Shown: positions 7,545 through 61,730, numbered from the stretch's first letter. The stretch is DNA of 64,000 bases from Escherichia coli (GCF_003991155.1 NZ_CP031293.1); one strand, 5' to 3'. The notes: generated by a model not told the origin, from the sequence alone. Numbers and translations: made by a program.

Positions 7545-8915
7545 TTACTTGTTCAATAACGCAAGGATAAGTTTTGTCTTTTCTTCCATCAGCGGCACAT
7601 CACCGCGCGATTCCACATTCAGGCGCACCACCGGTTCGGTGTTGGAGGAGCGCAGGTTAAAGCGCCAGTCGGCAAAGGTCATGCTGATGCCATCGGTGCG
7701 ATCCACCGCCAGCGCCTCACGGCTAAAATGCTGTTCGACGCGATTAATCGCCTCAGCGGGTTGCGCCAGTTTGCTGTTGATCTCACCGCTTGCCGGAAAC
7801 GCTGCCATCCGGTCGCGCACCAGTTCGCCCAGCGTTTTTCCTTTCAGACACACCAGTTCGGCGACCAGCAGCCACGGGATCATGCCGCTGTCGCAGTAAG
7901 CGAAATCACGGAAATAGTGGTGGGCGCTCATTTCGCCACCGTAGATGGCGTCTTCCTTGCGCATACGTTCTTTAATAAAGGCGTGTCCGGTTTTCGACAT
8001 CACCGGTGTGCCGCCCGCGGCGGTCACCACATCAACGGTATTCCAAGAGAGACGTGGATCGTGGATGATCTTCGCGCCGGGATTTTTTTCGAGGAACGCT
8101 TCTGCCAGCAGGCCGACAATGTAGTAGCCCTCGATAAACTGCCCTTTTTCGTCAAACAGGAAACAGCGGTCAAAATCGCCATCAAAGGCAATGCCCATAT
8201 CCGCGCCGTGTTTAATGACCGCATTGCGGGTGTCGTCGCGACATTCCGGCAGCAGCGGGTTAGGAATACCGTTGGGGAAATTGCCGTCCGGCGTGTTGTG
8301 CACTTTGATCAATTCCACAGGTGCGCCGAGGGCTTTAAAGCGGGCTTCGATAGCGTCCACCACCGGACCCGCTGCGCCGTTCCCGGAGTTGATCACCAGC
8401 TTGAGCGGCGTGAGGTTTTTGACATTGATATAACCGAACAGGTGATCAACGTAAGCGTCACGCAGGTTGATTTGCTGATAGCGACCGCATTTGGTTTCAT
8501 CGACGGGAGGAAAGTCGTTGGCTTCAGCCAGACGCTGGACGTCGCGCAGTCCGGTATCTCCGCTGATCGGGCGAGCCCCCTCGCGAACCAGCTTCATGCC
8601 ATTATAATCCATCGGATTATGGCTGGCGGTAACTTCGATGCCGCCATCCACGCCGAGATGGAACGTGGCGAAATAGATCTCTTCGGTGCCGGACATGCCG
8701 ATATCCAGCACATCGACGCCCGCATCCTGTAAACCTCTCGCCAGCGCCAGTTTTAAGGTTTCGCTGGTGAGGCGGACGTCACCGCCTAACACAATGGTTT
8801 TCGGTTTGAGAAATTCGCCATAGGCGCGACCAATGCGCCACGCAATATCTTCATTCAGTTCTTCGCCTAATTTCCCGCGAATATCATAGGCTTTAAAGCA
8901 GGTTAATTTTTTCAT
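7545..8915 (-). CDS. manB: Phosphomannomutase (O-antigen locus copy)
   Basis: 456-aa ORF with phosphohexomutase active-site loop (TASHNP); near-identical to cpsG at 30266..31636 except mainly at the C-terminus. Confidence 0.9.
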
Positions 8916-8939
8916 ATAAAAACCTTACCAATAATAAAA

Positions 8940-9698
8940 TTATTTATGCGCAAACAATTGCATTAGTTTTGAGATTTTTCTGATAATGATAGCAATTTTC
9001 CAATTTACATTATGGTTTTTCATAACTTCTACAATTTCCTTTGTACTTGATATCGCGTTATCAATTCTGGTACTTTCCCCACCCAATCTCATCTTTACAA
9101 ATACTTGAGGAACATAAATAACTTTAATATCATCACGTTTCAAAATCCTGACCATCTGATCATAGTCTGCAGCAATCCTATAGGATAAATCAAAATATCC
9201 ATCGTCTTTATATAATTCCCTCCTCATATAGAAAGATGGATGCGGTGGTGCCCAGCCTAATGATAGCTTAGAACGTTTAAAAGGACCACTACGCCAGTAT
9301 CGTTTGATTATATCAGTTTGGTTTTTTTCGAAAAAAACCAAATCACCGTATACAACATCCGCTTTTGTCTCATGGAAACGGCTTACAATAGTTTCAATAA
9401 TATCAGGTCTTGCTAAAAGGTCATCAGAATGAACGAATCCAATAATATCTCCCGTAGATAAATTTATACCTTTATTTAAAGCATCATAGATACCGTTATC
9501 GCTTTCTGATAGACATTTGGTTACTCTTGTTGATACTTCGTTAATTAGTTTTAACGTATTATCTGTAGAACCACCATCAATAATTATATACTCTATATCT
9601 TTATAGGTTTGCAACTCTATTGACTCTAAAGTATCCCTTAAAGTCTTTTCACTATTATAAGTCACTGTAATAATACTGACTTTCATTTTAACATCCAA
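8940..9698 (-). CDS. Family-2 glycosyltransferase (WcaE-like), O-antigen cluster
   Basis: 252-aa ORF with GT2 motifs (VTYNSE..., DGGSTDNT, DNGIYDA, SDD); visibly AT-rich; alternative start 12 nt downstream (MKVSIITV). Confidence 0.7.
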   Translation of the reverse strand: MDVKMKVSIITVTYNSEKTLRDTLESIELQTYKDIEYIIIDGGSTDNTLKLINEVSTRVTKCLSESDNGIYDALNKGINLSTGDIIGFVHSDDLLARPDIIETIVSRFHETKADVVYGDLVFFEKNQTDIIKRYWRSGPFKRSKLSLGWAPPHPSFYMRRELYKDDGYFDLSYRIAADYDQMVRILKRDDIKVIYVPQVFVKMRLGGESTRIDNAISSTKEIVEVMKNHNVNWKIAIIIRKISKLMQLFAHK

Positions 9699-9769
9699 TA
9701 ATAATCATAATTAAATAACGTCAGTACAGCATTACGAATAATAATGTTGCATTAGTATCCAGCATCATT

Positions 9770-11170
9770 TTAGATTCTAACAACATCATCTTCATCCAAG
9801 TAGACACCTGAACGTACCTCAATAATCTCCAAAGGGATCTTTCCTGGATTCTCAATAAAATGAGGTACACCTATTGGTATATAAGTTGATTCATTTTCAG
9901 AAACAAGAAATATTTCATCTTCATAATGGACTTTTGCTGTTCCAGAAACAACAATCCAATGCTCAGTACGATGGTAATGAATCTGTTTAGCAGTTTTATG
10001 TCCAGGATGAATAACGACATGTTTAACCTCAAATCGAGATCCTTCCGCTATAGAGTCATGACTGCCCCATGGCCTAAATATTTCACGATGCTGCAGATAT
10101 TCCGTACGGTTATTAACCTTAAGTTTTTCTACAATATTTTTTACCTGTTGAACTTTATCTTTATGCGCAACGAGAATAGCATCTTTAGTTTCAACAACTA
10201 CTAAATCTTTAACTCCTACTACACCAATTAATCTATGTTGTGAGTAAAGATAACTGTCAGAAGAATCATGAATTAATACATCTCCTCTAATTGCATTTCC
10301 ACTTTTATCTTTTCTGCTAATTTCCCATAATGCAGACCAAGAACCAACATCGCTCCAGTGGGCATTTAATGGAACTACCACAGCCTCTGTTGTTTTCTCC
10401 ATAACAGCGTAATCAATGGATTCTTCAGGGCAACAACTAAATGAGTCATTATCTATACGGATAAAATCAAGATCTTGTGTAGAGGACTTCAATGCTTGTT
10501 GGCATATTTTTAGTATGTCTGGTCTAAATTTATTCAACTCATCAATAAACACAGAAGCCCTAAACATGAATATTCCACTATTCCAAAGATAATCTCCATC
10601 TTCAAGATATTTTTTGGCCACATCTAGCTCAGGCTTTTCAACAAAAGCAGAAACTTTAAAACCATATTCATTTAAATTTTCTCCGGTTTTTATGTAGCCA
10701 TATCCAGTTTCGGGTTTGGTTGGCACAATACCAAAAGTTACCAGCTTACCTTCCTCTGCAAATTCTTTTGCAGCCAATATTGACGATATAAAGCGCTTTT
10801 GGTCTTGTATTTCATGATCGGCTGCTAGTACAAGCAGTATTGGATCCTCACCTGATGAAATCGCTTTAAGAGCAGCAAGCGCAACTGCGGGGGCTGTATT
10901 ACGACCTATCGGCTCTAGTAAAATGCCACTATTCGCTAAATTTACATTACGCATTTGTTCTGCAACGATAAAACGATGAACTTCATTACAAATAACCAGA
11001 GCAGGACGATGTTCAACCCCTTCAAGCCTTCTTAAGGTCTCTTGTAGCATAGTCAAACGACTAGTTAACGATAGGAATTGCTTCGGATATAGTGTTCGAG
11101 AAAGTGGCCACAATCTAGTTCCAGAACCACCGGCCATTACAACAGGAAGTAGCATATAAATAACCTTCAC
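9770..11170 (-). CDS. manC: Mannose-1-phosphate guanylyltransferase (O-antigen locus copy)
   Basis: 466-aa ORF with nucleotidyltransferase motif (MAGGSGTRLWPLSR) and C-terminal cupin region; diverged paralogue of cpsB; true start may be the Met 15 nt downstream. Confidence 0.85.
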   Translation of the reverse strand: MKVIYMLLPVVMAGGSGTRLWPLSRTLYPKQFLSLTSRLTMLQETLRRLEGVEHRPALVICNEVHRFIVAEQMRNVNLANSGILLEPIGRNTAPAVALAALKAISSGEDPILLVLAADHEIQDQKRFISSILAAKEFAEEGKLVTFGIVPTKPETGYGYIKTGENLNEYGFKVSAFVEKPELDVAKKYLEDGDYLWNSGIFMFRASVFIDELNKFRPDILKICQQALKSSTQDLDFIRIDNDSFSCCPEESIDYAVMEKTTEAVVVPLNAHWSDVGSWSALWEISRKDKSGNAIRGDVLIHDSSDSYLYSQHRLIGVVGVKDLVVVETKDAILVAHKDKVQQVKNIVEKLKVNNRTEYLQHREIFRPWGSHDSIAEGSRFEVKHVVIHPGHKTAKQIHYHRTEHWIVVSGTAKVHYEDEIFLVSENESTYIPIGVPHFIENPGKIPLEIIEVRSGVYLDEDDVVRI

Positions 11171-11622
11171 TTAAAATAATTTTTTGTGTACTGATGAACT
11201 GAGGAATTAGCTAACAATTCGGCTATATCGAACCAATTGTAAGTACTATGTTGTAGTGTTGGATAGTTAATTTGATGTGGCATCAAACTAATCTCATATC
11301 CGTGTACGACATAATGAGTTGAAAAACAAGTCCCAGAAAAATTGTCGCTGTAGAAATGTTCATAAATCCCAAGAAATTTTGCTTCATTAATGCTAATTTG
11401 AACACCCAATTCTTCTAAAGTAACTCTTTTGAATGCGTTCTCGAAAGACTCATCTTTAAGAATCCGTCCCCCCGGCACAAACCAATAATTTTGTGCTGGA
11501 CGATTAAGGCGCTGACCAAGCAGCGCCTTACCATCTTCGTTTCTTATAATAAGGTCTATCGAGATTAGTGGAGTATGTTCAACTATTGATTTAAATAACT
11601 CTGTTTCTAATCTCTTGTTCAA
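11167..11622 (-). CDS. gmm: GDP-mannose mannosyl hydrolase (Nudix), O-antigen locus copy
   Basis: 151-aa ORF, paralogue of the colanic acid gmm/wcaH (shared YWFVPGGR motif); sits between fcl and manC. Confidence 0.8.
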   Translation of the reverse strand: MNKRLETELFKSIVEHTPLISIDLIIRNEDGKALLGQRLNRPAQNYWFVPGGRILKDESFENAFKRVTLEELGVQISINEAKFLGIYEHFYSDNFSGTCFSTHYVVHGYEISLMPHQINYPTLQHSTYNWFDIAELLANSSVHQYTKNYFK

Positions 11623-11624
11623 TA

Positions 11625-12590
11625 TTAACTCCTAAATGAGTCAAGATTATTTATAAACCATTTATATGTTAATTCTAGTCCTTGTTTTAAATTATAACGA
11701 TATTTCCAACCCAAATTCTCAAGGCGTGTAACATCCATAAGTTTACGAGGCGAACCATCTGGTTTTGTTATATCAAAAACAATTTTTCCATCATAGCCAA
11801 CAACTAAAGCCATTGTTTCTGCCATTTCACGTATGGAACAATCAACACCAGTACCTACGTTAATATGAGATAACATTGGTTGAGTATTTTTTTTATAAAT
11901 TTCATCATCAAGCTCCATCACATATACTGATGCAGCGGCCATATCATCAACATATAAAAACTCGCGTTTTGGAGTTCCCGTTCCCCAGACAACCACTTCA
12001 TTTAAACCAAGTTCCTTTGCTTCATGAAAACGCCGCATAAGCGCTGGAATTACATGTGAGTTATTGGGATGAAAATTATCATTCATACCATATAAGTTAG
12101 TAGGCATTACACTGCGATAATCACATCCATATTGGCGATTATAAGATTCACATAGCTTTATACCTGCTATTTTGGAAATAGCATAAGGCTCATTAGTAGG
12201 CTCAAGAGTTCCCGTCAAAAGTGCAGATTCTTTCATTGGCTGTTCTGCAAACTTTGGATAGATACAACTTGACCCTAAGAATAATAGTTTCTTTATGCCC
12301 GCTTTGTAAGATGAGTGAATAATATTGCTTTCAATAAGAAGGTTCTGATAAATAAATTCAGCTGGAAAAGTGTTATTAGCATGAATTCCTCCTACTTTTG
12401 CTGCTGCAAGGTAAACCTGATCTATTCTCTCTTGCTCAAAAAAACATTCAACATCCTTTTGAACTGTCAAATCGAGTTCTTTGTGAGTTTTGACAATTAA
12501 CTCAACATCATTACGTGCTAATAATTGACGACAAATAGCAGAACCAACCATCCCACGATGTCCAGCCACAAAAATTCGCTTCTTGGTCAT
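11625..12590 (-). CDS. fcl: GDP-L-fucose synthase (O-antigen locus copy)
   Basis: 321-aa ORF ([19 protein letters not shown]...) clearly paralogous to the fcl at 34970..35935. Confidence 0.9.
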
Positions 12591-12593
12591 ACT

Positions 12594-13715
12594 TTAACGC
12601 TCCAAAGAGACTGCCACGTCAAAACCATGGCTTTTAAGAAGTGCATGCTGTTTAGCTTTTTCTAAATCACTAGCCACCATTTCTGCACACATTTCTTCAA
12701 CTGTAATCTCTGGCTCCCAACCCAAGACATTTTTTGCTTTTGTTGGATCACCAAGAAGAGTTTCAACTTCTGCTGGTCGAAAATAACGAGGGTCAACGCG
12801 AACAATAACATCACCAATATTAACACCAACGGCGCAATCTGATGTTTTATTTACAACAAATGCAATCTCATCAACACCAGTACCGGAAAACTCAAGTTCA
12901 AGTCCAACTTCTTTAGCAGACATACGGACAAATTCACGTACAGATATTTGTTTGCCGGTGGCAATAACAAAGTCTTCTGGCTGGTCTTGTTGAAGCATCA
13001 TCCATTGCATACGAACATAATCTTTCGCATGCCCCCAATCGCGTAAAGAATCCATGTTGCCAAGATATAAGCATTTTTCTATTCCCTGCGATATATTAGC
13101 TATAGCACGTGTGATTTTACGTGTTACAAACGTTTCCCCACGACGTGGGGATTCATGATTGAACAAAATACCGTTACATGCATACATTCCATAAGACTCA
13201 CGATAGTTTACAGTGATCCAATATGCATACAGTTTAGCTACGGCATAAGGTGAACGAGGATAGAACGGCGTTGTCTCTTTTTGTGGAACTTCCTGAACTA
13301 ATCCATACAATTCAGAGGTTGACGCCTGATAAAATCGGGTTTTTTTTTCTAATCCCAAAAAACGAATAGCTTCCAATAATCGTAAAGTACCTATAGCATC
13401 AACATCAGCTGTATATTCTGGGGATTCGAAGGAAACAGCTACGTGACTCATTGCGCCAAGATTATAAACTTCATCAGGTTGAACTTCAGATAATATCCGA
13501 GTCAAATTAGAAGTATCTGTTAAATCACCATAATGAAGTTGTAATTTTAAATTACGATGGTGTGGGTCTTGATATATATGATCAATACGGTCAGTATTAA
13601 ACAAGGAAGATCGACGTTTTATTCCATGAACCTCATAGCCTTTTTTAAGCAGAAATTCTGCCAAGTAGGAACCATCTTGCCCGGTAATTCCTGTAATTAA
13701 AGCTTTCTTACACAT
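12594..13715 (-). CDS. gmd: GDP-mannose 4,6-dehydratase (O-antigen locus copy)
   Basis: 373-aa ORF ([17 protein letters not shown]...) highly similar to the colanic acid gmd at 35938..37059. Confidence 0.95.
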
Positions 13716-13725
13716 AAATAACCTC

Positions 13726-14733
13726 TCAAAACTTAGATAGTGATTTATATAGATTATATGTTTCGGAGAAACACTTCCCCCATGAAAATTTATTAGATTG
13801 CGCTAATCCTTTATTTTTTAATTCATTAGCGTTAGCTTCTACACTTAATAAAGCTGAGAATAAACTTTCAATTGATACTTCTTCGACTAAAATCGCACTA
13901 TCCCCCACAACCTCGGGTATTGATGATCTATTTACGGCTATCACAGGACAGCCAGTTCGCATAGCCTCAAGCAAGGGAATTCCAAACCCTTCATATTCTG
14001 AAGGATAGATTAAGCAATAAGCCGAATTATATAATATATTTAGTTTTTCATTTGATACCTTCCCTAAGTACTGGAATCTTTCTGGAAGATATTCAGATAG
14101 TAACTTCATTTCTGCTTTATTTAAACCACCTCCGCCGACTATTTTAAGATTAGTATCAAAAAGTTTAGAAATGGCTTTAACTGCAAGCTCAAAATTTTTA
14201 TATCCTGAACGAGCACCGACAAAAAGCACAAAATTTTCTTTTTCTAGATTTAAGTGTCTATAATCTTCCGATACACCATTATGAATAACATGTATCTTTT
14301 TTTCATCAACCTTAAAGAAATTAATTAAATCCTTGGCTGTATTATTAGAGACACAAATGATTGCATCGCTATGTTTCACAGCCCATCTTTTTTGTAAGCT
14401 ATGAACATTGCGCCGAAGTCCTTTCATATACAATTCATATGTGAAATCGTGGACCGTGGTCACAACCGCATATTCCCCATCTTTCGGAACCCGATAATAT
14501 GTAGAATGAAATATACTGTAATCTGAATCACTTTTTAATGCTTCAAAACATCTATATCGTTCTAAAAACCGGCATGGCCGATGGAGATCATCATTGTGAT
14601 TTTCATTTTTATCATTAAATTGAATGAACTTGTATTCGTCATTTTTTAATCTCTTAATGATTTCTTCAAAGTATACAGTGATACCACCATATGATTGTAA
14701 ACTTTTCACAATCCCATCATATAATATTTTCAT
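13726..14733 (-). CDS. Family-4 (GT-B) glycosyltransferase, O-antigen cluster
   Basis: 335-aa ORF with C-terminal [13 protein letters not shown] motif typical of GT4 enzymes; AT-rich. Confidence 0.7.
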
Positions 14734-14801
14734 TTTTTGTTTTCATATATATAGATAACAATACAGTAAGCAATGAAATGGATGATTATAATTGTTTCAA
14801 T

Positions 14802-15818
14802 TTACTCTTTATATCCATTTGGATTCATTGTTTGCCATCTCCATGCATCTTCCACCATATTATTAAGAGTCCTTTTAGCAACCCAACTTAGCTGCTCGTT
14901 TGCTAAGGAAGGATCGGACCAACATTCAGCCACATCTCCATTTCGCTCAGAAACGATACGGAAAGGTATATCGCGTCCTGTTTCCAGTTTAAAAGCGTCG
15001 ATGATATCTAACACACTATAACCTTGACCAGTGCCTAAATTAAAAACTTTAAGCCCCTGGTTTCTATTGAGATTTTTTAAAGCGGCAAGATGCCCCTCAA
15101 CTAAATCGACTACATGGATATAATCTCTTACACCTGTTCCATCTTTTGTCATATATTTATTACCAAAAACATTTAGATAGGGTAATTTTCCAATTGCGAC
15201 TTGCGCAACATAGGGAAACAGGTTATTAGGAGTTCCTAAAGGATCTTCTCCAATTAATCCAGTCTCATGAGCACCTACAGGATTAAAATATCTTAGTATT
15301 GTGATATTTGCGTCGCTATTCGCGTTACAAAAATCACGCAATATATGTTCCACCATAAACTTTGAACGACCGTACGGATTGATCACCTCACCGACAGGGT
15401 GTTTTTCAGATATTGGAACATAATGAGGATTGCCATAGACAGTAGCAGACGAACTAAAAATTAGATTAGAAATATTCGCTTTCTGCATTTCATCAAGTAA
15501 TATTAGAGTCCCCAAAAGATTTGTGTCGTAATATTCTAATGGTTTTTTAATGGACTCGTTAACAGATTTTAAACCCGCAAAATGCATTACAGTAGAAACA
15601 TTATATTTTGAAAAGATATTTTTTAATATATGTCTATCTCTAATATCACCACGTAATTTTTTTATCTTAGATAAGCAAATTTCCTCTACTCGTTCTAGAG
15701 ATTTTGGAGAGGAATTGCAATAATTATCTAGCGATATAACATCATATCCATTTTGCAATAAAGTTAATATAGCATGTGAGCCAATATAGCCAGCCCCACC
15801 AGTCACAAGTATGCTCAT
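14802..15818 (-). CDS. UDP-hexose / UDP-N-acetylhexosamine 4-epimerase (GalE family)
   Basis: 338-aa ORF with N-terminal TGGAGYIGSH Rossmann motif and overall GalE-like layout; embedded in the O-antigen cluster; substrate not determinable from sequence. Confidence 0.85.
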   Translation of the reverse strand: MSILVTGGAGYIGSHAILTLLQNGYDVISLDNYCNSSPKSLERVEEICLSKIKKLRGDIRDRHILKNIFSKYNVSTVMHFAGLKSVNESIKKPLEYYDTNLLGTLILLDEMQKANISNLIFSSSATVYGNPHYVPISEKHPVGEVINPYGRSKFMVEHILRDFCNANSDANITILRYFNPVGAHETGLIGEDPLGTPNNLFPYVAQVAIGKLPYLNVFGNKYMTKDGTGVRDYIHVVDLVEGHLAALKNLNRNQGLKVFNLGTGQGYSVLDIIDAFKLETGRDIPFRIVSERNGDVAECWSDPSLANEQLSWVAKRTLNNMVEDAWRWQTMNPNGYKE

Positions 15819-15838
15819 ACTTTAATAGCTCCAATACC

Positions 15839-16906
15839 TTAATTTTCTTGACTATTGGCTCGATTGATCAAACTCATCCACTGAGCACTAACTATTTCTT
15901 CTGTATAATGTCTATTCACGAATAGGAATCCTGCATTTCCGTGTTCGGTTCGTTTAACATTATCTTCAAAGTAAGTTAGTTTTTCCTGAAATTCAATTTG
16001 AGATTGACACACAAATCCGCCACCCGATGAAGAAATCACGCTACTTGTCCCTCCAGATATATCCATTGAAATTACAGGTAATCCGTAGGACATAGCTTCA
16101 AGTATTGTAACAGGAAAACATTCAAAGTATGAACCGGATACAAAAACATCACTTTTTGCCAAAAAAACATCTGTGTTTAAACTCGGTCCATGAAAGTGTA
16201 TTTGGTTGTTATTCTTATATTTAGATTTGAGATACTCCAGCTCTTGACCACCTCCTACAATGTGTAAAACATACTTTTTTGTAGACGGGTGATTTATTAC
16301 TGCATTAATTAACCTTTCAACTCCTTTATCTTTAACAATCCGACCAATATAAATCAAATCAAGAGTTTCTTTTCCTTGATGTATGCGCTTATATTTTTGC
16401 GTTTTGATTGAATTTGGTATAATTACAACCCTTTTACAAAAAGTAAACTTATCTTTTTCCTTGTGAGAATTACAAACTACTACAGCTTTTTTATTAAGAG
16501 ACAAAAGAAATTTAAATACTTTTCTCCAAAAAATACTATTCTTGTCAAATGGATAATGTTCCCAGCAAATAATTTTATTCTTATTATACCGAAAAAAACC
16601 AATCAATAACAATAATGATGATGTAGCTATATCCGTGGAAATTATTAATTCAAGGTCTTTACTTTTGGCACTCAAAAAAAACAAATATTTAATGTAAAAC
16701 CTTAATTTGCTTTCTTCATATGCAGTATTGTCTTGGAATAAGTAGGTTTTCCGATTATCTTCTCTAACTTGTATCTCTTGTGCGTTTATTGCTGAAAAAC
16801 ATCTCACTTGTAGGCTGTTTTTAGTTAATATATCAATTAGATTTTCAACTGCTTTCTCAGTGCCACCTATTTTATTTTCATACAGCTTAAAGACTCCAAT
16901 GGACAT
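15839..16906 (-). CDS. Family-4 (GT-B) glycosyltransferase, O-antigen cluster
   Basis: 355-aa ORF with GT4-type C-terminal motif (FECFPVTILEAMSYGLPVIS). Confidence 0.7.
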   Translation of the reverse strand: MSIGVFKLYENKIGGTEKAVENLIDILTKNSLQVRCFSAINAQEIQVREDNRKTYLFQDNTAYEESKLRFYIKYLFFLSAKSKDLELIISTDIATSSLLLLIGFFRYNKNKIICWEHYPFDKNSIFWRKVFKFLLSLNKKAVVVCNSHKEKDKFTFCKRVVIIPNSIKTQKYKRIHQGKETLDLIYIGRIVKDKGVERLINAVINHPSTKKYVLHIVGGGQELEYLKSKYKNNNQIHFHGPSLNTDVFLAKSDVFVSGSYFECFPVTILEAMSYGLPVISMDISGGTSSVISSSGGGFVCQSQIEFQEKLTYFEDNVKRTEHGNAGFLFVNRHYTEEIVSAQWMSLINRANSQEN

Positions 16907-16907
16907 T

Positions 16908-18143
16908 TTATTGACTCACTCTTATATATTCTGCTGATTTAACTTCTTTATTGAATAGGAATAATGAGGGCTTATACAATATATCGCACCAAGACACATA
17001 AATAATATCTTTACCCATATTTGCCTGTGCCAAATTTATGATTGAACATGCGGTAATGAGTATTAAGAAGATCAGATGCTTACATAGTTTGCTAATTTTA
17101 TTAATATCGTAGGAGAAAAATATATAACTATATAATAACACCCAGAAAATGGAAAATCGATAAAATAAATCAGGCGATAACGATAAAAGGCATATCAGCA
17201 AAAGAAGTAAACTGCAAAAATTTTTGATTTGTGACTCTTGCCTCGTCATTTTTTTATTAAATAAAATTAAATAGATAAAAGTAAAAATAAAAAACACTGA
17301 CGGTAATATGATCTTATTCAAGATATATTCATTAGTGCTCAGCAAGCTATTGCTTATGCCTATGGTTACAGAGTCCATATATTCGGGAAAGTAAAAACCT
17401 AAGCTTTCCAATAATGGCCTAATCAATTGAAATAGCAAAGAAGATATTAACCCATCATGGTTAAGGATTAGAACTAATATTATTAAATACAATATTGTTT
17501 TGTTAAGTCTTATTAATTTGCTAACAAAAAAAACACCTAGCAATAGTATTGCGCTGGGATGAATACAACATGAAATAATTGCAGAGAATATAATTTTTTG
17601 TGACTTATACCTATTATTTTCACTGGTGAAATACTGTATAATCATATAAAGCATAATACTAAATGCAAGATATTGCCGCAATGAACTAGCTATAGCAAAA
17701 AATGGGATTACGCTTATTAGAATATATAAATATATACATCTATGAGATAATTCCGGATTGTATTTTTTAATGTAATTAACATATATATTAAAATAAAAAA
17801 TATATGATAAAAATGTTGAAAAAAAAGGTAAAAATTCTTTTTTTATTCCTAAAGATTTAAATAAATAAATAACAGTATTTATTGTAATATATCTATTGTC
17901 ACTATTTTCAAAAACTTTGTTTAGTGATGTTTGACTAACATATAAATATGTTTCATAATGCCTAGTCAAATCCCAATTTTCATAAGGTATTAACAAAAAT
18001 GCTAGTACCCCTAGCATAAATGAACATACATAAACACTCCATCTGGCCCCATTAATCATTTCAATCATTGCTAATAATAAAGCAAGAGGCAAATAAATTA
18101 TTGAAATAAATGAAGCACTAATTTTTATGTTTCTATTAATCAT
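16908..18143 (-). CDS. wzy: O-antigen polymerase
   Basis: 411-aa very hydrophobic, multi-pass, AT-rich ORF with low similarity to anything else in the window, between glycosyltransferases; typical Wzy signature. Confidence 0.65.
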   Translation of the reverse strand: MINRNIKISASFISIIYLPLALLLAMIEMINGARWSVYVCSFMLGVLAFLLIPYENWDLTRHYETYLYVSQTSLNKVFENSDNRYITINTVIYLFKSLGIKKEFLPFFSTFLSYIFYFNIYVNYIKKYNPELSHRCIYLYILISVIPFFAIASSLRQYLAFSIMLYMIIQYFTSENNRYKSQKIIFSAIISCCIHPSAILLLGVFFVSKLIRLNKTILYLIILVLILNHDGLISSLLFQLIRPLLESLGFYFPEYMDSVTIGISNSLLSTNEYILNKIILPSVFFIFTFIYLILFNKKMTRQESQIKNFCSLLLLLICLLSLSPDLFYRFSIFWVLLYSYIFFSYDINKISKLCKHLIFLILITACSIINLAQANMGKDIIYVSWCDILYKPSLFLFNKEVKSAEYIRVSQ

Positions 18144-18865
18144 CTTTTTATAACTTTTCTCATAAATAGGTAAATATCTGCTAACGCCGCATATAATTTC
18201 CCGTTTCTTTTCTTTCGGATTTGTCTCGCTTCCTCCAATGCTAATTTTACATTTTTAGCGCTAAGGCCGGCATTTCTCATCGAAGAGATATTTTTATCAA
18301 TATAATGAAAGATATAACCTTGTTTCTTCAATTTTAGCAAAAGATCATAATCAGAAGCAATTTTATAGCTAGTATTAAATAAATTTTCTCTGTGGATATC
18401 TTTTCTAATAAATGTGGCCGGATGGCTTAAATTCATATCTATATGTAGTTTCCAGTCTTTAGGCCTCCGGACCTGAATAACATCCAAGCTATCAGCCTCT
18501 ACCAAAGACATATTTCCATAAATAACATCATATTTATTTTCTTTCATTACTTTTATTACTTGACATAATACATCTTTATTATAAAAATCATCAGCGTTTA
18601 TAAATCCTATATAATTTCCAGATGCTTTTAACACACCTTTATTCATTGCATCATATATACCATTATCATTTTCAGAAATGATATATGAAATTTCATTTTT
18701 GTAAGAATTAACAATATTTAGAGTATTATCCGTTGATGCACCATCAATTATAATATATTCAATGTCATCATTGCAGTTTTGTGATAAGACACTTTTTATA
18801 GTATCTTCGATATACATTTCGCCATTGTACACAACGGTAACTATTGTTAAAGTTGGTTTATTCAT
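18140..18865 (-). CDS. Family-2 glycosyltransferase (WcaE-like), O-antigen cluster
   Basis: 241-aa ORF with GT2 motifs ([28 protein letters not shown]); paralogous to the GT2 at 8940..9698 and to wcaE. Confidence 0.7.
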   Translation of the reverse strand: MNKPTLTIVTVVYNGEMYIEDTIKSVLSQNCNDDIEYIIIDGASTDNTLNIVNSYKNEISYIISENDNGIYDAMNKGVLKASGNYIGFINADDFYNKDVLCQVIKVMKENKYDVIYGNMSLVEADSLDVIQVRRPKDWKLHIDMNLSHPATFIRKDIHRENLFNTSYKIASDYDLLLKLKKQGYIFHYIDKNISSMRNAGLSAKNVKLALEEARQIRKKRNGKLYAALADIYLFMRKVIKR

Positions 18866-18873
18866 TGTTAGCC

Positions 18874-20109
18874 CTACAATAAATTTAAATTATTTAATTT
18901 ATTTGTTTTCTTAATCAAAAAGTAAAATCTCGCCATTATTATAAACTCAGTTGAAATAACTCCTATTGCTGTACCAACTCCTGAGTATTCATTAGTCAAA
19001 TAAGTAATTATCAGTAGGCCTATTAATCCACTGGTAGTAATAATTTTTGTAAATTCTTTTTTCATACCAATAGGGATCATTACTAAAATTGCAATATAAT
19101 TACTTACCGTAACTATTGCTGGAGTAAAAGCTAAAACTTTGAGTATTTCTAAAGATTCATGATACGTTTTTCCATACATGATTAAAATTATATCGTCTGC
19201 AAAAAAGTAAAGAAATATGGAAAGTACGAACATCAGTGAAAATTGCCATCGAAACACTTTCCTGGCTAATAATAGTCCATCGTCATGATTATCCTTCATT
19301 ATATAAGTTACTCTAGGAAAAACAGCTTGGGTTATAGGACCAATAACGCCTTGTAGTGCAAGCCTAATTTTATCTGCAGCGATAAAATATCCCACTGCAG
19401 TTGTTCCTGATAATGCACCTAATATTATTGTTGAACTAGTAGTATAAAGGCTTATTGCTGCAGAGGAAATGAAGTAATGCCATCCATCATAAATTAACTC
19501 TTTCATTTTGGATAAGGATGGTGGTACCCATATTATTTTTTTAAGAGAAAATAAAAAATATGTAGATATTATACCTGCAATAACTGTTATTGATGATTGT
19601 ATTGTTATCGCTATACCAAGATCCTTTTCACTTTTAACCAATAAAAATGTTAAACATAGTGTAAGTAAGCGTGCGGAAAACATACTTATCGCTATTCCTA
19701 ACATTTTTTCCAGCCCTTGAAAAAACCATACTGGATATATTAAATTTCCTACGACAGATATGTATGCAAGAATGATAAATTTAATTTGGTAATCAATGAT
19801 ATTCAATTCCGAAATTAAATAAATAATTAACAAACCAAGAGATGCTGCAATTATTTTGATAAACGTTACATTCCAAAAAACTTTACTTATGGAATCAGTA
19901 TTTTCCCTTGATATTGATATGATTTTGGGCGCTGAGTAGTTAAATCCGTAATCAATAAATAATATAAAATATTGGACCACAGCAAAACTATACCCATATA
20001 TCCCGTATCCTGTAGGTTCAAGGATCCTGACAAGATAAGGCAGTGTGACCAATGGAAATATATAATTGCCACCTTGAACGCTTAATAAATAGATGATGTT
20101 TTTTAACAT
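18874..20109 (-). CDS. wzx: O-antigen flippase
   Basis: 411-aa polytopic membrane ORF with Wzx/MOP-family-like N-terminus; first gene downstream of the JUMPstart/ops element. Confidence 0.7.
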   Translation of the reverse strand: MLKNIIYLLSVQGGNYIFPLVTLPYLVRILEPTGYGIYGYSFAVVQYFILFIDYGFNYSAPKIISISRENTDSISKVFWNVTFIKIIAASLGLLIIYLISELNIIDYQIKFIILAYISVVGNLIYPVWFFQGLEKMLGIAISMFSARLLTLCLTFLLVKSEKDLGIAITIQSSITVIAGIISTYFLFSLKKIIWVPPSLSKMKELIYDGWHYFISSAAISLYTTSSTIILGALSGTTAVGYFIAADKIRLALQGVIGPITQAVFPRVTYIMKDNHDDGLLLARKVFRWQFSLMFVLSIFLYFFADDIILIMYGKTYHESLEILKVLAFTPAIVTVSNYIAILVMIPIGMKKEFTKIITTSGLIGLLIITYLTNEYSGVGTAIGVISTEFIIMARFYFLIKKTNKLNNLNLL

Positions 20110-20189
20110 AACGAGCCTACGTACTTAACAAGTCTTATTTTGCACGATAGTTTACAATTTGTTAAGTAATATGGGATAAACATTTAATT

Positions 20190-20201
20190 CACGCTACCGC
20201 C
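20190..20201 (-). promoter_or_regulatory. ops element (GGCGGTAGCGTG on the coding strand) within a JUMPstart-like leader of the O-antigen operon
   Basis: Exact reverse complement cacgctaccgcc seen on the + strand in the galF-wzx intergenic region. Confidence 0.8.
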
Positions 20202-20481
20202 CCTGGCTCAACAGCTACCAGCGTACTGCATGCATGTCCTAGTTGTACCTAGCATTAACCGTTATGGTTAGTTCGAAAAGCTTAACTCTGAACGTTTTAC
20301 CAAATCGCTTCAGAGATGGAGAAAATCTCAGCCTCCCACAATAAATGCCTATTGAAAAGTTATTGTTACTCATATTTAGAACGGTATAAAGAAAGAATGA
20401 GGCAATGAGTACAATTAGCCCCACGAATCCTCACCGCCGTTATAATTTTCTTATCAACCGTTACATCCGGTCAGATTTTCA

Positions 20482-21375
20482 TTATTCGCTTAACAGCTTT
20501 TCAATACCTTTACGGAACTTCGCCCCTTCTTTCAGGTTGCGCAGTCCATACTTCACAAACGCCTGCATATAGCCCATTTTCTTGCCACAATCGTAACTGT
20601 CACCGGTCATCAGCATTGCATCAACGGACTGTTTTTTCGCCAGTTCAGCAATGGCATCAGTCAGCTGAATACGCCCCCATGCACCAGGTTGAGTGCGTTC
20701 AAGTTCCGGCCAAATATCGGCAGAAAGCACATAGCGACCAACGGCCATGATGTCTGAGTCCAGCGTCTGCGGCTGATCCGGTTTTTCGATAAATTCAACA
20801 ATGCGGCTGACTTTGCCTTCACGATCCAGCGGCTCTTTGGTCTGAATAACGGAGTATTCAGAAAGGTCACCCGGCATACGTTTTGCCAGCACCAGGCTAC
20901 GGCCCGTTTCATTGAAGCGCGCAATCATGGCAGCAAGGTTGTAGCGCAGCGGGTCGGCGCTGGCGTCGTCGATCACTACGTCTGGCAGTACCACGACAAA
21001 TGGGTTGTCGCCAATGGCGGGTCGTGCACATAAAATGGAGTGGCCTAAACCTAAAGGTTCGCCCTGACGCACGTTCATAATGGTCACGCCAGGCGGACAG
21101 ATAGACTGCACTTCCGCCAGCAGTTGACGCTTCACGCGCTGTTCAAGGAGAGATTCTAATTCATAAGAGGTGTCGAAGTGGTTTTCGACCGCGTTCTTGG
21201 ACGCGTGAGTTACCAGGAGGATTTCTTTGATCCCTGCAGCCACAATCTCGTCAACAATGTACTGAATCATTGGCTTGTCGACGATCGGTAGCATCTCTTT
21301 GGGTATCGCCTTAGTGGCAGGCAACATATGCATCCCAAGACCCGCTACCGGTATAACTGCTTTTAAATTCGTCAT
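20482..21375 (-). CDS. galF: UTP-glucose-1-phosphate uridylyltransferase-like regulatory subunit
   Basis: 297-aa ORF ([43 protein letters not shown]...); canonical position upstream of the O-antigen cluster. Confidence 0.9.
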
Positions 21376-21617
21376 TATTTTCCTACCTCTAAGTGACTGA
21401 TAGTGCGTAAATTATTGCCATAGATTAGCCAAACGGTATGGCTATATACCAAAGCTTAGTTCCGCATAACTTTGATTAAACCTTGCGATAACACTACACA
21501 CCATCAGCATCTGGGTTACTCGGATTACTCGGAATTCCGCATACTGATAATTTAATCAGTACCTCTTTCCGAATAATCGTAGTCCAACCTGGTCCTTTTT
21601 TCTCTGACTCGTCTGCA

Positions 21618-22613
21618 TTACTCAGAAACAAACGTTATGTCGTCTTTTTTGGCATGGACGAATTCATACTGCAGAGTTCGATCCAGACCTTGCGACAGCG
21701 TATACGGTGCCACAAAACCTGAAGAATGCACTTTCGTTGCGTCAAACTGTGTTGTTGCGCAGAATTTTTTCACGCGCACTGAGCTGACAGCGTATTTTTT
21801 GCCCGTAATTTTGCTCAGGATATCAAAACAATATCCCCCCAGCATTCCTAGTGGGTAAGGCAAGTGCATAGAAGGGATCTTTTTGTTCAGGCTTTGTTCA
21901 ACTTCAGCAACCAACTGGTTCATGTTCAGGTCTGGCTTATCAACGTAGTTATAAACCTCATAACCTGCGGCAACATTCTTCAGTTTGTACTTGATAAACT
22001 CAACAATGTTTCCAACATAAGCCATGGACTTATAGTTAGTCCCTGCGCCCACCATCATAAACTTGCCGCCAGCGATCTGTTTCAGCAAGTTATAGACGTT
22101 ACCGCGGTTGCGTTCACCGAAGATAACGGTAGGACGGATGATGGTTAATGAACGTTCTGTTGGTGCTTTGTTATACCATTCACGCAGCACTTCCTCTGCC
22201 TGCCACTTACTTTTGCCGTAGTGGTTGAAAGGGTCGTGTGGATGGTTTTCGTCAGGGTTGTGTTTGTTCAAACCATAAACAGCAACGGAACTGGTAAAGA
22301 TGATATTTTTAACGCCATTTTTTTCCATGGCAGCCAACACATTGCGGGTACCCTGAACGTTGACATCATAATAGAGAGAAGTAGGGCTGACGTCATCGCG
22401 GTGTTCCGCTGCCAGTAGCACAACAGTGTCAAAACCGGCTAACGCCTGGTCGAGTGCCTGTTGATCACGAACATCGCCAATCTGTGTGATTTCTGGATAA
22501 AAGTGGCTCTGCTGTTTGTCCAGGTTCTTGATATTAAAGTCAGCAATTGCCGTTTCAAGTAGTCGGGTTCCTACGAATCCGGAAGCTCCTATGAGCAAAA
22601 CGTTATCGTTCAT
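21618..22613 (-). CDS. gnu: NAD-dependent epimerase of the Z3206 type (annotated as Gne or Gnu in other E. coli), between wcaM and galF
   Basis: 331-aa ORF with N-terminal GASGFVGTRL Rossmann motif; size and position match the epimerase found at this site in several non-K-12 serogroups; identity from memory, not searched. Confidence 0.65.
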   Translation of the reverse strand: MNDNVLLIGASGFVGTRLLETAIADFNIKNLDKQQSHFYPEITQIGDVRDQQALDQALAGFDTVVLLAAEHRDDVSPTSLYYDVNVQGTRNVLAAMEKNGVKNIIFTSSVAVYGLNKHNPDENHPHDPFNHYGKSKWQAEEVLREWYNKAPTERSLTIIRPTVIFGERNRGNVYNLLKQIAGGKFMMVGAGTNYKSMAYVGNIVEFIKYKLKNVAAGYEVYNYVDKPDLNMNQLVAEVEQSLNKKIPSMHLPYPLGMLGGYCFDILSKITGKKYAVSSVRVKKFCATTQFDATKVHSSGFVAPYTLSQGLDRTLQYEFVHAKKDDITFVSE

Positions 22614-22770
22614 AAATCACTTTAGTCTGGTTGTTACGTAAGAAACACAAGATAAAGATGAGTACCTTCTCTGAGTAGTCAATGCTGCCCAGCCCCAGCT
22701 TTAACAGTTAGTGTGAGGATTATAATCTTTTAGAACATTATATCCAGTAAGTTTATGAATGGTCGCAAAT

Positions 22771-24165
22771 CTACTCCCTCCGTTCCGGCAATCTAAAGTT
22801 AATCTTCTCCACATTAACAATATGGTGATTAATCCTGTCGATATCGACGGAGCTTTGCCCTTTTTCATTCACTGCATGAATATTCGTGAGTGAAAGCAGC
22901 GTTTTACGCTTTGCCATAAAAACGCCTCGAACGTCTTTGCGCATGTCAAAGTTCATGCTCAATGCGGGTCCAACTGAGGATTCCTGCATCACATTGATAT
23001 TTCGCATAAAAAGATGTTGCGGTTTGTTGTGTAACTCCAGCGACGCACGCTTCATCTCAATGTTAGTCAGCGCCACAAAGGAGACAGCATTCCCGGCGGA
23101 GATTTGAATGCCGCGCAATTTATAAGCAAGATGAGTATTATCCAGTTGAATATCATTCACTCGGAAATTCTGCGGTATCGAGAGATATTTGCCTTTAATT
23201 ACCCCATAGCCGATTAACATCCCGGCACTATTAATCATTTCAATATTATCAATCACAAAGTTGTCACAACCATAAATAGCAACTGTGGCGTTATCAATAC
23301 CTGCTTTCTTACTGAAATCCGGCGTGATATTACGAGCTTTGATATTACGGATAACAAAATGTTTACCATTTTCAACATGGATCAGTTGCCGACAATCCGA
23401 TCCCGTGATATTCGCCACGACAAAGTTTTTCACTGCCTGGTTTTCCGGATAATTATTATCGTAGGTACTTCCCGCAAGGCCTATGCCGATGCCCCAGTTG
23501 ATTTTGCCGTTGGTACAGTTAATGCGCTCAATGAGATGGTCGGATATCAAAATATCACTGTCGTTAATCGCCACGTTCCATTCAATAGCGTCGCCCTGTA
23601 AGTCGCTGAACTTACAGTTGGTGATGTTGGCACCGATTATCTGGTTATGAAATCCCTGGCGTAAGATGGCGTAATTAGCGTGGCTAACGGTCAGGTTATC
23701 GATGGTCAGGTTGTGCATGACCCGTTTGTTTTTGCCGCCGATATAAATCTGCGTTACCGGACCAAAGCCGCTCATCGCCAGCCCTTTGATGGTGCAGTCA
23801 GAACCACGCACATCCAGGGTGATGTTATGCATACTGCCGCCCTCCTCCCCTGTCACCTGGCTGCCGTCCTGTAAGACAAATCGCCCTCTGCCGTTGCCGC
23901 GCAGGCTTCCAAGGATGTGTAACGTTTTACCTGCAGGAATGAAGATGCCGGTGTTGATATTGTCACAAACCAATCCGGCAGGCACGACGACCGTTTGCCC
24001 TTCGCTGAAGGCTTGTTTAAATGAGGCGATCCAGTCGTGAGGGTTGTAGTCGTTAATGTTAACGCTTTGTTGAGCGGGAAGTGCGCGGGCGAAAGGCGTA
24101 TGGAGGAAGGCAAGCACAGAGCTTGCCGTCAGGAAGGTGCGTCGGGAGAGTTTTTTAAATGGCAT
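22771..24165 (-). CDS. wcaM: Colanic acid biosynthesis protein WcaM
   Basis: 464-aa ORF with Tat-like signal ([15 protein letters not shown]) and repeat-rich body; last gene of the colanic acid cluster. Confidence 0.9.
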
Positions 24166-26673: not shown

Positions 26674-26734
26674 TTTTTCCTCATAAATTTGATGCCAGGT
26701 GAGGCTGTGTTTGTTGTGTTCGTTGCCGTTTTTT

Positions 26735-27312
26735 GCCTGATGCGACGCTAACGCGTCTTATCAGACCTACAAGATCCGAGCACAGAACCGTAGGACGGAT
26801 AAGGCGTTCACGCCGCATCCGGCATTCAGTGCCTGATGCGACGCTGACGCGTCTTATCAGGCCTACAAGACCCGAGCACAGAGCCGTAGGACGGATAAGG
26901 CGTTTTACGCCGCATCCGGCATTCAGTGCCTGATGCGACGCTGACGCGTCTTATCAGGCCTACAAGATCCGAGCACAGAACCGTAGGCCGGATAAGGCGT
27001 TTTACGCCGCATCCGGCATTCAGTGCCTGATGCGACGCTGGCGCGTCTTATCAGGCCTACAAGACCCGAGCACAGCCCCCCAGGACGGATAAGGCGTTTT
27101 ACGCCGCATCCGGCATTCAGTGCCTGATGCGACGCTGACGCGTCTTATCAAGCCTACAAGATCCGAGCACAGAACCGTAGGCCGGATAAGGCGTTTTACG
27201 CCGCATCCGGCATTCAGTGCCTGATGCGACGCTGGCGCGTCTTATCAGGCCTACAAGACCCGAGCACAGCCCCCCAGGACGGATAAGGCGTTTTACGCCG
27301 CATCCGGCAACC
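26735..27312. repeat. Tandem array of about six REP/BIME-like palindromic units (~100 bp each)
   Basis: Repeated gcctgatgcgacgctgacgcgtcttatcaggcctacaag...ccgtaggacggataaggcgtt[tc]acgccgcatccggcattcagt with small variations, between wcaK and wzxC. Confidence 0.9.
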
Positions 27313-27336
27313 GTTGCCGGAACCGAAAACAGCCAT

Positions 27337-30265: not shown

Positions 30266-31636
30266 TTACTCGTTCAGCAACGTCAGCAGAGTTCGCGTTC
30301 GCGCTTCCATCAGCGGCACATCACCGCGCGATTCCACATTCAACCGCACCACCGGTTCGGTGTTGGAGGAGCGCAGGTTAAAGCGCCAGTCGGCAAAGGT
30401 CATGCTGATGCCATCGGTGCGATCCACCGCCAGCGCCTCACGGCTAAAATGCTGTTCCACGCGGTTAATCGCCTCAACGGGTTGCGCCAGTTTGCTGTTG
30501 ATCTCACCGCTTGCCGGAAACGCGGCCATCCGGTCGCGCACCAGTTCGCCCAGCGTTTTTCCTTTCAGGCACACCAGTTCGGCGACCAGCAGCCACGGGA
30601 TCATGCCGCTGTCGCAGTAAGCGAAATCACGGAAATAGTGGTGGGCGCTCATTTCGCCACCGTAGATGGCGTCTTCCTTGCGCATCCGTTCTTTAATAAA
30701 GGCGTGTCCGGTTTTCGACATTACCGGCGTACCGCCTGCGGCAGTCACCACATCAACGGTGTTCCAGGAGAGACGTGGATCGTGGATGATCTTCGCGCCG
30801 GGATTTTTTTCGAGGAACGCTTCTGCCAGCAAACCGACAATGTAGTAACCCTCGATAAACTGCCCTTTTTCGTCAAACAGGAAACAGCGGTCAAAATCGC
30901 CATCAAAGGCAATGCCCATATCCGCGCCGTGTTTGATGACCGCATTGCGGGTGTCGTCGCGACATTCTGGCAGCAGCGGGTTAGGAATACCGTTGGGGAA
31001 ATTGCCGTCCGGCGTGTTGTGCACTTTGATCAATTCCACAGGTGCGCCGAGGGCGTTAAAGCGGGCTTCGATGGCGTCCACCACCGGACCCGCCGCTCCG
31101 TTCCCGGAGTTAATCACCAGCTTGAGCGGCGTGAGGTTTTTGACGTTGATATAACCGAACAGGTGATCAACGTAAGCGTCACGCAGATTGATTTGCTGAT
31201 AGCGACCGCGTTTGGTTTCATCGACGGGAGGGAAGTCGTTGGCTTCTGCCAGACGCTGGACATCGCGCAGTCCGGTATCACCGCTGATCGGGCGGGCCCC
31301 CTCGCGCACCAGCTTCATGCCGTTATAATCCATCGGGTTATGGCTGGCAGTAACTTCAATGCCACCATCCACACCAAGATGGAACGTGGCGAAATAGATC
31401 TCTTCGGTGCCGGACATACCAATATCCAGCACGTCGACGCCCGCATCCTGTAAACCTTTCGCCAGCGCCAGTTTTAAGGTTTCGCTGGTGAGGCGGACAT
31501 CACCGCCTAACACAATGGTTTTCGGTTTGAGAAATTCGCCATAAGCGCGACCAATGCGCCAGGCAATATCCTCATTCAGTTCTTCGCCTAATTTCCCGCG
31601 AATATCATAGGCTTTAAAGCAGGTTAATTTTTTCAT
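30266..31636 (-). CDS. cpsG: Phosphomannomutase (colanic acid locus copy)
   Basis: 456 aa from MKKLTCF (ORF track extends 16 codons further upstream); near-identical to manB at 7545..8915. Confidence 0.9.
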
Positions 31637-31726
31637 ATCGTTACCCTTTTTCAGGCAATAGTTGGCCCTGACCGAAACGGCCAATTTTGTTTTTGTCGTT
31701 ATTTACATCGCGGTTTCGCATTCATT

Positions 31727-46167: not shown

Positions 46168-46179
46168 CACGCTACCGCC
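46168..46179 (-). promoter_or_regulatory. ops element (GGCGGTAGCGTG on the coding strand) in the JUMPstart leader of the colanic acid operon
   Basis: Exact reverse complement cacgctaccgcc on the + strand, ~180 nt upstream of the wza start. Confidence 0.8.
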
Positions 46180-61549: not shown

Positions 61550-61730
61550 AAGAAATCCTTTCTTAGAGAATTATTGAGGTCCGGTATCATACCGATTGCA
61601 ATAATGAAATAAGAGCAAACGAAGAAACTTTCAGAATTAGGCCCGGCGGCGCAGAAAATTTTGCTATTCGCCTCGCAAGAACGGAGAGCCGTCGATTGAC
61701 ACTAAGGGCGGAGTGACATAATTTCAGGAG

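Follow-up and report, generated by a model that had tools for sequence, protein, structure and literature searches.

Two 4-epimerases at the Escherichia coli O11 locus: Gnu between wcaM and galF and a probable Gne inside the O-antigen cluster

The O11 locus of Escherichia coli most likely uses the standard two-epimerase solution, Gnu plus a GalE-family Gne, to supply GalNAc for two positions of its O unit. The window analyzed here, a 64,000-nt stretch of E. coli DNA, differed from E. coli 2016C-3878 at 3 bases, and its O-antigen cluster is that of E. coli O11, which has already been described. The pairing of gnu with an in-cluster gne is an ordinary, published arrangement and nothing new. Gene identities, residues, context, and distribution were obtained directly. 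The database matches were at E < 1e-100 or the genes were identical to annotated ones, so chance was not an issue.

Two distinct 4-epimerase genes had been proposed in a first-pass annotation of this DNA, and two ORFs were found, exactly at 14802..15818 (338 aa, 36% GC) and 21618..22613 (331 aa, 45% GC). Both are on the minus strand, as are all other features described below. The two proteins shared only 27% identity over 260 residues, indicating that they are distinct enzymes.

The 331-aa protein was identical at 331/331 residues to the O157:H7 protein from the wcaM–galF locus (Z3206/Gnu, WP_000999466.1), whose NCBI/PGAP name is Und-PP-GlcNAc 4-epimerase. The earlier call of a Z3206-type gene between wcaM and galF was therefore correct. 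The O11 and O157:H7 genes differed at 11 nucleotides, all of them synonymous. The calculated mass (37142 Da) matches the 37141 Da given in an O157 proteome paper for Z3206/gne, encoded beside Z3205/galF. The protein is an extended SDR (Pfam Epimerase, 8.5e-31; 3Beta_HSD, 3.1e-27), and it scored only 71 bits on the TIGR01179 galE model, far under the cutoff of 262. Its motifs are intact: GASGFVG at residues 9–15, Ser109, which aligns to GalE Ser124, and Tyr132-x3-Lys136. No transmembrane segment was found in Gnu (the top 19-residue Kyte–Doolittle mean was 1.45, at a Rossmann strand), so any membrane association must be peripheral.

The gnu gene lies between wcaM (22771..24165; NF007517, 1016 bits, cutoff 808) and galF (20482..21375; TIGR01105, 685 bits, cutoff 659, and annotation). 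The upstream neighbour, wcaM, ends the colanic acid cluster, and galF is the conserved flank that separates gnu from the O-antigen operon. The first-pass annotation had suggested that K-12 lacks a gene here; MG1655 indeed has only a 174-bp spacer between wcaM and galF. Alignment with K-12 indicated that the whole spacer was simply replaced at the gnu site. Neither repeats nor scars of mobile elements were found on either side of the gnu segment; the repeat scan of this segment gave one 13-nt inverted repeat, inside gnu. The JUMPstart/ops element (20190..20228; Rfam RF01707, 57 bits, gathering score 35), with ops GGCGGTAG at 20194..20201, marks the head of the O-antigen operon. As it lies downstream of galF, gnu is outside the JUMPstart-controlled transcription unit. 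A position directly upstream of galF and outside the O-antigen operon is that of gnu in E. coli, Shigella, and Salmonella. The wcaM–gnu spacer (22614..22770) holds a promoter-like site at 22746..22719 (10/12 matches in a consensus scan only), which is a possible candidate for gnu's own promoter. Of the 5426 complete E. coli genomes searched, 1314 carried gnu. At least 80% of a wzx–galF–gnu query was present in 65 genomes and at least 80% of the O11 cluster also in 65, indicating that gnu accompanies the O11 cluster in apparently all of those genomes.

The 338-aa protein scored 428 bits on TIGR01179 galE (cutoff 262) and 449 bits on NF007956 (cutoff 394). It is, from its sequence, a true GalE-family enzyme of clade A encoded inside the O-antigen cluster, as first annotated, and it is a paralogue rather than the housekeeping galE product. 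It has the family, the length (338 aa), and the catalytic Ser124, Tyr149, and Lys153 of K-12 GalE, whereas the two share only 51% identity, have Cys299 (O11) and a bulky Tyr299 (K-12), and are encoded in the O-antigen cluster and the gal operon, respectively. The best solved-structure relative was human GALE (1e-127, 55% identity); E. coli GalE gave 1e-115. In a six-sequence alignment, S124, Y149, K153, N179, N199, R231, R292, and D295 were invariant. The gatekeeper column held Cys in the O11, O103, and human proteins, Ser in O86 Gne2 and O128, and Tyr in K-12 GalE; O11 Cys299 aligned with human GALE Cys307 and with the Cys of the O103 in-cluster homologue, which a review names gne. The 338-aa gene is specific to O11 genomes and was intact at no less than 99% identity in 65 complete genomes. 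Of the 5426 complete E. coli genomes, 5389 had the housekeeping galE (about 99%, a species-wide count).

When galE lies elsewhere in the genome, an O-antigen cluster gene of clade A is taken as gne (PMC3682973). The O11 gene is located mid-cluster, and the gal-operon galE is near-universal in the species. Pocket size decides UDP-GlcNAc use, a rule derived from Y. enterocolitica Gne and E. coli GalE, and K-12 GalE is reported to be unable to use UDP-GlcNAc (PMC3682973). Human GALE and Y. enterocolitica O:8 Gne are dual UDP-Glc/UDP-GlcNAc 4-epimerases. O11 Gne shares the small Cys gatekeeper with human GALE and differs from it in organism and in role, which here would be O-antigen precursor supply. 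Together, the 51% identity to K-12 GalE, the 36% GC, and Cys299 suggested that the 338-aa enzyme probably makes UDP-GalNAc. The first-pass annotation held that specificity cannot be read from sequence. This is true in part, and Cunneen et al. state that sequence alone cannot yet separate GalE from Gne (PMC3682973), but the residue at the gatekeeper position does offer some guidance.

The O11 unit is a pentasaccharide; four of its linkages are α and one is β. It contains β-D-GalNAc, drawn at the reducing end, α-L-Fuc, α-D-Man, and a second, α-linked 2-acetamido sugar; the fifth sugar is unnamed (PMC4906483). The β-D-GalNAc would be the biological first sugar of the unit. Cunneen et al. do not list O11 among the 115 serogroups of their Table S2 (PMC3682973).

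Downstream of JUMPstart lie wzx (18874..20109; Pfam Polysacc_synt; PGAP 'O11 family O-antigen flippase'), a GT2 (inverting) glycosyltransferase gene (18140..18865; PF00535, 8e-29) whose product is a putative α-L-fucosyltransferase, and wzy (16908..18143; EpsG family; PGAP 'O11 family O-antigen polymerase'). The gne gene is flanked directly upstream by a GT1/GT4-type (retaining) glycosyltransferase gene (15839..16906; PF00534, 3e-26) and directly downstream by a GT4 (retaining) one (13726..14733; PF00534/PF13439). They are followed by gmd, fcl, gmm, and manC (9770..13715; ORFs and annotation) for GDP-L-fucose and GDP-mannose supply, a second GT2 (inverting) gene (8940..9698; PF00535, 1e-29), and the phosphomannomutase gene manB (7545..8915; 55% GC), 98% identical to colanic-acid cpsG. 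The cluster content is four glycosyltransferases (two GT2 and two GT1/GT4), the GDP-Fuc/GDP-Man genes, and the epimerase. No Bac_transf or WecA-type initiating transferase gene was found in the O11 cluster by domains and annotation. The second HexNAc is probably GalNAc and the fifth sugar probably Fuc, in line with the building-block references of the synthesis paper and with the count of two inverting and two retaining glycosyltransferases. The need for Gal or GalNAc, expected from the paired epimerases, was supported and can be narrowed: the in-cluster enzyme most likely serves GalNAc, not Gal, because of the gatekeeper Cys299, the presence of galE in 99% of E. coli, and the two HexNAc residues of the unit.

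From these data, we infer the enzymatic specificities and glycosyltransferase assignments of a four-step pathway. As the cluster has no initiating transferase, WecA would initiate O11 synthesis by forming Und-PP-GlcNAc, as is general for E. coli. Gnu would epimerize C4 of this lipid-linked sugar, and the resulting Und-PP-GalNAc would provide the initiating residue, which would be the single β-linked GalNAc once Wzy has polymerized the units. The 338-aa Cys299 enzyme would interconvert UDP-GlcNAc and UDP-GalNAc, which the housekeeping GalE (Tyr299) would be unable to do. UDP-GalNAc would be the donor for the internal α-GalNAc, added by one of the two retaining GT4-type transferases. The two inverting GT2 enzymes and the remaining retaining one would add two α-L-Fuc and one α-Man from GDP-sugars supplied by gmd, fcl, manC, and manB. 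The two enzymes are expected to follow the usual SDR chemistry, in which NAD+ stays tightly bound, a 4-keto intermediate forms transiently, and Tyr-x3-Lys acts together with Ser. Thus, Gnu and the in-cluster Gne are the most likely suppliers of the two GalNAc residues. It had also been suggested that an initiating HexNAc may be epimerized at the lipid-linked stage, with Gal or GalNAc needed in addition; this agrees with the published Gnu/Gne model, in which one enzyme serves the lipid-linked initiating HexNAc and the other a nucleotide sugar (PMC3682973, PMC7685785).

Three other explanations were weighed. The in-cluster enzyme could be an ordinary GalE giving UDP-Gal for an O-unit galactose, with Gnu alone handling GalNAc, since PGAP and TIGR01179 both say GalE and the fifth O11 sugar is unnamed in the synthesis paper (PMC4906483). 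However, a UDP-Gal supplier in the cluster would be redundant with a nearly universal housekeeping galE. An α-Gal would also need a third retaining glycosyltransferase in a cluster of two GT2 and two GT1/GT4 enzymes. Enzymes with a Cys gatekeeper, such as human GALE, do use UDP-Glc/UDP-Gal as well, but Cys299 would open the pocket for an N-acetyl group, and the O11 unit has a second 2-acetamido sugar. We therefore consider an ordinary GalE unlikely. It is less likely still that the gene is a redundant passenger of a laterally acquired cluster and dispensable for O11 synthesis. Its low GC (36%) resembles that of the remainder of the imported cluster, and there are about 10 cases of gnu or gne being present though the structure does not predict them (PMC3682973). 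The ORF, however, is intact, with all catalytic residues, at 99% identity or more in 65 independent complete genomes. Moreover, no further source of UDP-GalNAc is known in E. coli.

The third explanation concerns the Z3206-type enzyme, which would be a UDP-GlcNAc 4-epimerase, with WecA transferring GalNAc-1-P directly and the functions of the two epimerases overlapping. This was the original assignment of the wcaM–galF gene (Wang 2002), and the title of Guo 2007 refers to 'overlapping substrate specificity' of three O86 epimerases. There is also no structure of a Gnu enzyme; the best PDB match to Gnu had E = 2e-17. As summarized in PMC3682973, however, Rush 2010 found direct conversion of Und-PP-GlcNAc by O157 Gnu and no activity on UDP-GlcNAc. 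In O86, LPS is altered when either gene is knocked out, showing that their functions differ, and gnu occurs in step with GalNAc as the first sugar in 104 of the 115 serogroups and without exception in Y. pseudotuberculosis (PMC3682973). On this explanation, a second, in-cluster epimerase would be pointless. This explanation is thus very improbable. We give slightly less credence still to the proposal that the Z3206-type and Cys299 enzymes both use UDP-sugars and overlap in specificity, as earlier biochemical work on O55 and O86 suggested, or that the Cys299 enzyme has a role beyond UDP-GalNAc supply; if true, either would reopen the question of how GalNAc-initiated O units start.

The preferred reading, Gnu plus Gne, has close parallels in known systems. 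O157:H7 Z3206/Gnu, described by Rush et al. 2010 and placed in clade D by Cunneen et al. 2013, is the same in protein sequence, wcaM–galF locus, and predicted mass; its adjoining O-antigen cluster is O157 rather than O11. O86 gne1 (gnu) is upstream of galF, like O11 gnu, and its product differs by 1 aa. The O86 cluster also contains fucose genes and, like O11, has a GalE-family gene, then a GT4 gene, then gmd–fcl–gmm–manC. The O86 unit has two GalNAc residues, and both gne1 and gne2 are needed (PMC3682973). O11 Gne and O86 Gne2 share 56% identity and differ in the gatekeeper (Cys in O11, Ser in O86) and in gene position (mid-cluster in O11, first after galF in O86). The GT4 next to O11 gne was also considered as an orthologue of the O86 GalNAc transferase WbnH, and this was rejected because identity was 30% and covered the C-terminal half only. 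In O125 and Y. pseudotuberculosis O6/O7, GalNAc is both initiating and internal, which was explained by gnu plus gne (Cunneen et al. 2013); here, the likeness is at the module level. The O125ac unit also has an α-Man-(1→3)-α-L-Fuc-(1→3)-GalNAc motif. In Yersinia O6/O7, gnu and gne are both inside the cluster, unlike in O11. The O11 pairing repeats the published pattern of O86, O125, and Y. pseudotuberculosis O6/O7.

The significance of these results is mainly correct annotation. The PGAP label 'galE' is probably not specific enough for the 338-aa in-cluster gene, for which 'gne' is the better name. A Gnu/Gne pair is useful in glycoengineering, giving Und-PP-GalNAc primers and a UDP-GalNAc supply to K-12 hosts that have neither gene, a use already exploited with the identical O157 gene. 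Read as Gnu plus Gne, the O11 locus is a textbook case of how E. coli makes O units in which GalNAc is both the first sugar and an internal one.

The minus-strand genes formed a single run across the region in the ORF listing. As transcribed, their order was wcaM, gnu, galF, JUMPstart, wzx, GT2, wzy, GT1/GT4, a GalE-family gene, GT4, gmd, fcl, gmm, manC, GT2, manB and gnd. The 11.6-kb manB–galF interval matched 65 complete E. coli genomes at 100% identity; NCBI labels their wzx and wzy "O11 family". E. coli 2016C-3878 (NZ_CP029747.1) differed from the whole window by 3 bases. The O11 feature is known from earlier work and has been annotated. A JUMPstart element (20190..20228; Rfam RF01707, 57 bits against a gathering score of 35) and an ops motif (20194..20201) were located. 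Annotation and domain search found no initiating sugar-phosphate transferase among the O11 cluster genes, so O11 initiation must rely on WecA, the usual route in Enterobacteriaceae (PMC3682973). Mean GC content was 33% for the O11 cluster, 36% for its epimerase gene and 45% for gnu.

The first-pass annotation had proposed two distinct 4-epimerase genes, and both were found on the minus strand with the ends it gave: a 338-aa gene inside the cluster (14802..15818) and the 331-aa gnu (21618..22613). The two proteins shared 27% identity across 260 residues. The Z3206-type assignment of gnu, between wcaM (22771..24165) and galF (20482..21375), was borne out. Both neighbors scored far over their curated cutoffs, and the wcaM–galF protein of E. 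coli O157:H7 was identical to Gnu at 331/331 residues. Both carry RefSeq WP_000999466.1, named [quoted passage not shown]; the two genes differed by 11 nucleotides, every one synonymous. The calculated mass of Gnu, 37142 Da, agreed with an O157:H7 proteome study that gives 37141 Da for Z3206 (gne), listed beside Z3205 (galF), and reports enrichment of this protein in insoluble, membrane-associated fractions (PMC3210124).

Gnu is an extended short-chain dehydrogenase/epimerase (Pfam Epimerase, 8.5e-31; 3Beta_HSD, 3.1e-27) that scored just 71 bits on the GalE model TIGR01179 (cutoff 262). It kept the GASGFVG, Ser109 and Tyr132-x3-Lys136 motifs. No transmembrane segment was found in its sequence, and a PDB search returned no closely related structure; the best matches (~2e-17) were an archaeal-type SDR and the sterol enzyme NSDHL. 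In K-12 MG1655, the wcaM–galF interval held a 174-bp spacer alone, as the first-pass annotation had stated. The alignment with K-12 indicated that this entire spacer was replaced, and neither it nor a repeat search revealed flanking repeats around the gnu segment. A promoter-like site in the wcaM–gnu spacer matched the consensus at 10/12 positions; this predicted site, together with the placement of JUMPstart, points to possible transcription of gnu apart from the O-antigen operon. The gnu gene and its spacers were present in 1314/5426 complete E. coli genomes. At least 80% of a wzx–galF–gnu query was found in 65 genomes, the same number as carry the O11 cluster (65).

The 338-aa protein gave a full-length match to the GalE equivalog TIGR01179 (428 bits; cutoff 262) and also matched NF007956 (449 bits; cutoff 394). 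Its identity was 51% to K-12 GalE, 55% to human GALE, 59% to the O103 in-cluster epimerase and 56% to O86 Gne2, the GalE-family enzyme of the O86 cluster. The best solved relative was human GALE (1e-127), compared with 1e-115 for E. coli GalE, whose Y299C mutant structure outscored the wild type. In alignment with these relatives, catalytic and nucleotide-binding residues were all invariant. Cys299 aligned with Tyr299 of E. coli GalE; this residue is Cys in human GALE and the O103 enzyme, and Ser in O86 Gne2 and the O128 enzyme. According to Cunneen et al., pocket size at this position governs UDP-GlcNAc use, E. coli GalE cannot use UDP-GlcNAc, and a clade A gene that lies within an O-antigen cluster, when galE is present at another site, can well be taken as gne (PMC3682973). 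Housekeeping galE was present in 5389/5426 genomes. By sequence, the 338-aa gene is a genuine GalE/Gne clade member, distinct from the housekeeping gene.

In the O11 unit, a pentasaccharide, four linkages are alpha and one is beta (PMC4906483). The synthetic unit has a reducing-end beta-D-GalNAc bearing alpha-L-Fuc at O-3, and also holds alpha-D-Man and a fifth residue in alpha linkage; its second amino sugar was made from a 2-azido precursor converted to the acetamido sugar (PMC4906483). Precursor genes in the cluster were the GDP-Man/GDP-Fuc set and the epimerase, with no others. The cited building-block references reportedly describe a benzylated thio-L-fucoside (Lonn 1985) and a tolyl 2-azido-thiogalactoside (Zhang et al. 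1999). On that basis, the second amino sugar is probably alpha-D-GalNAc and the fifth residue alpha-L-Fuc. The gene content served as an independent check and appears consistent with this assignment. GT2 enzymes are inverting, and GT1/GT4 enzymes are retaining. The two GT2 enzymes would fit two alpha-L-Fuc from GDP-beta-L-Fuc, and alpha-Man and alpha-HexNAc would fit the two GT1/GT4 enzymes; the sole beta linkage would then be left to Wzy. An alpha-Gal in the unit would require a third retaining enzyme. The first-pass annotation had suggested a need for additional Gal or GalNAc; this reading is supported and can be narrowed, since the glycosyltransferase count and Cys299 favor GalNAc over Gal.

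Cunneen et al. 2013 defined Gne (clade A), Gnu (clade D) and GnaB, and found that gnu presence agreed with structure in 104/115 serogroups (PMC3682973). In O86, gne1 (upstream of galF, its product described as identical to the O157 protein) and in-cluster gne2 are both required; Y. pseudotuberculosis O6/O7 is a further case described there (PMC3682973). A 2020 E. coli O-antigen review applies the gnu/gne rule routinely, and an O125 structure paper calls on the same pair. The O11 epimerase pair is this published pattern. Similarly, the O86 and O128 loci have gnu and galF, and within their clusters a GalE-family gene precedes GT4–gmd–fcl–gmm–manC; their Gnu alleles were each 1 residue away from the window protein. 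The O11 GT4 was also considered as an orthologue of O86 WbnH and rejected by sequence comparison.

The in-cluster enzyme might instead supply UDP-Gal, which is improbable: this role would be redundant beside galE and sits badly with the glycosyltransferase count and Cys299. The in-cluster gene is very unlikely to be a passenger that O11 synthesis could do without, given its conservation: it was intact with at least 99% identity in the O11 genomes. It was found in no others. Equally unlikely is the original 2002 proposal that the Z3206-type enzyme epimerizes UDP-GlcNAc, which is contradicted by the Rush data in their summarised form, by the O86 requirement for both genes and by the serogroup statistics.

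Several other features were observed. The O-antigen manB (7545..8915, minus strand) shared 98% protein identity with the colanic-acid cpsG of the matching genome, and its GC content was 55% against 33% in the remaining cluster, suggesting that these copies may have undergone gene conversion or recombination. In the window, cpsG lies at ~30266..31636 (the ORF, 30266..31684, begins at an upstream TTG), preceded by an algC RNA motif (31641..31690, minus strand). Unlike manB/cpsG, the two gmd copies were just 83% identical. A second JUMPstart (46168..46206, minus strand), upstream of wza, heads the colanic acid operon. The wzxC–wcaK spacer (26674..27336) differs by strain (180 bp in CP52E, 564 bp in the O86 strain and 663 bp here) and contains five tandem naRNA4/CssrE (REP-type) elements (26793..27251, plus strand). 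A RelE/ParE toxin and HTH antitoxin pair, mapped from the matching-genome annotation, lies between asmA and yegH (~48306..48924). Between mdtA and yegL, five tandem SIB antitoxin RNA matches (61696..63157, plus strand; 139–150 bits each; period ~328 nt) overlap five Ibs type I toxin ORFs annotated in the matching genome. DebRoy et al. 2016 reported OX19 and O11 clusters 98–99.9% identical in strains without serological cross-reaction and offered no cause; none was visible in the window's O11 cluster (7545..20109).

For the gnu–gne pair, the analysis establishes which genes are present, their residues, context and distribution; the epimerase specificities and glycosyltransferase roles in the following proposed division of labor are inferred. 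On the cytoplasmic side of the inner membrane, Gnu would turn the Und-PP-GlcNAc formed by WecA into Und-PP-GalNAc. In-cluster Gne would equilibrate UDP-GlcNAc and UDP-GalNAc, supplying the internal alpha-GalNAc; both epimerases would act by transient NAD+-dependent oxidation at C4. The four glycosyltransferases would complete the O unit, which Wzx would flip and Wzy would polymerize via the beta-GalNAc linkage.
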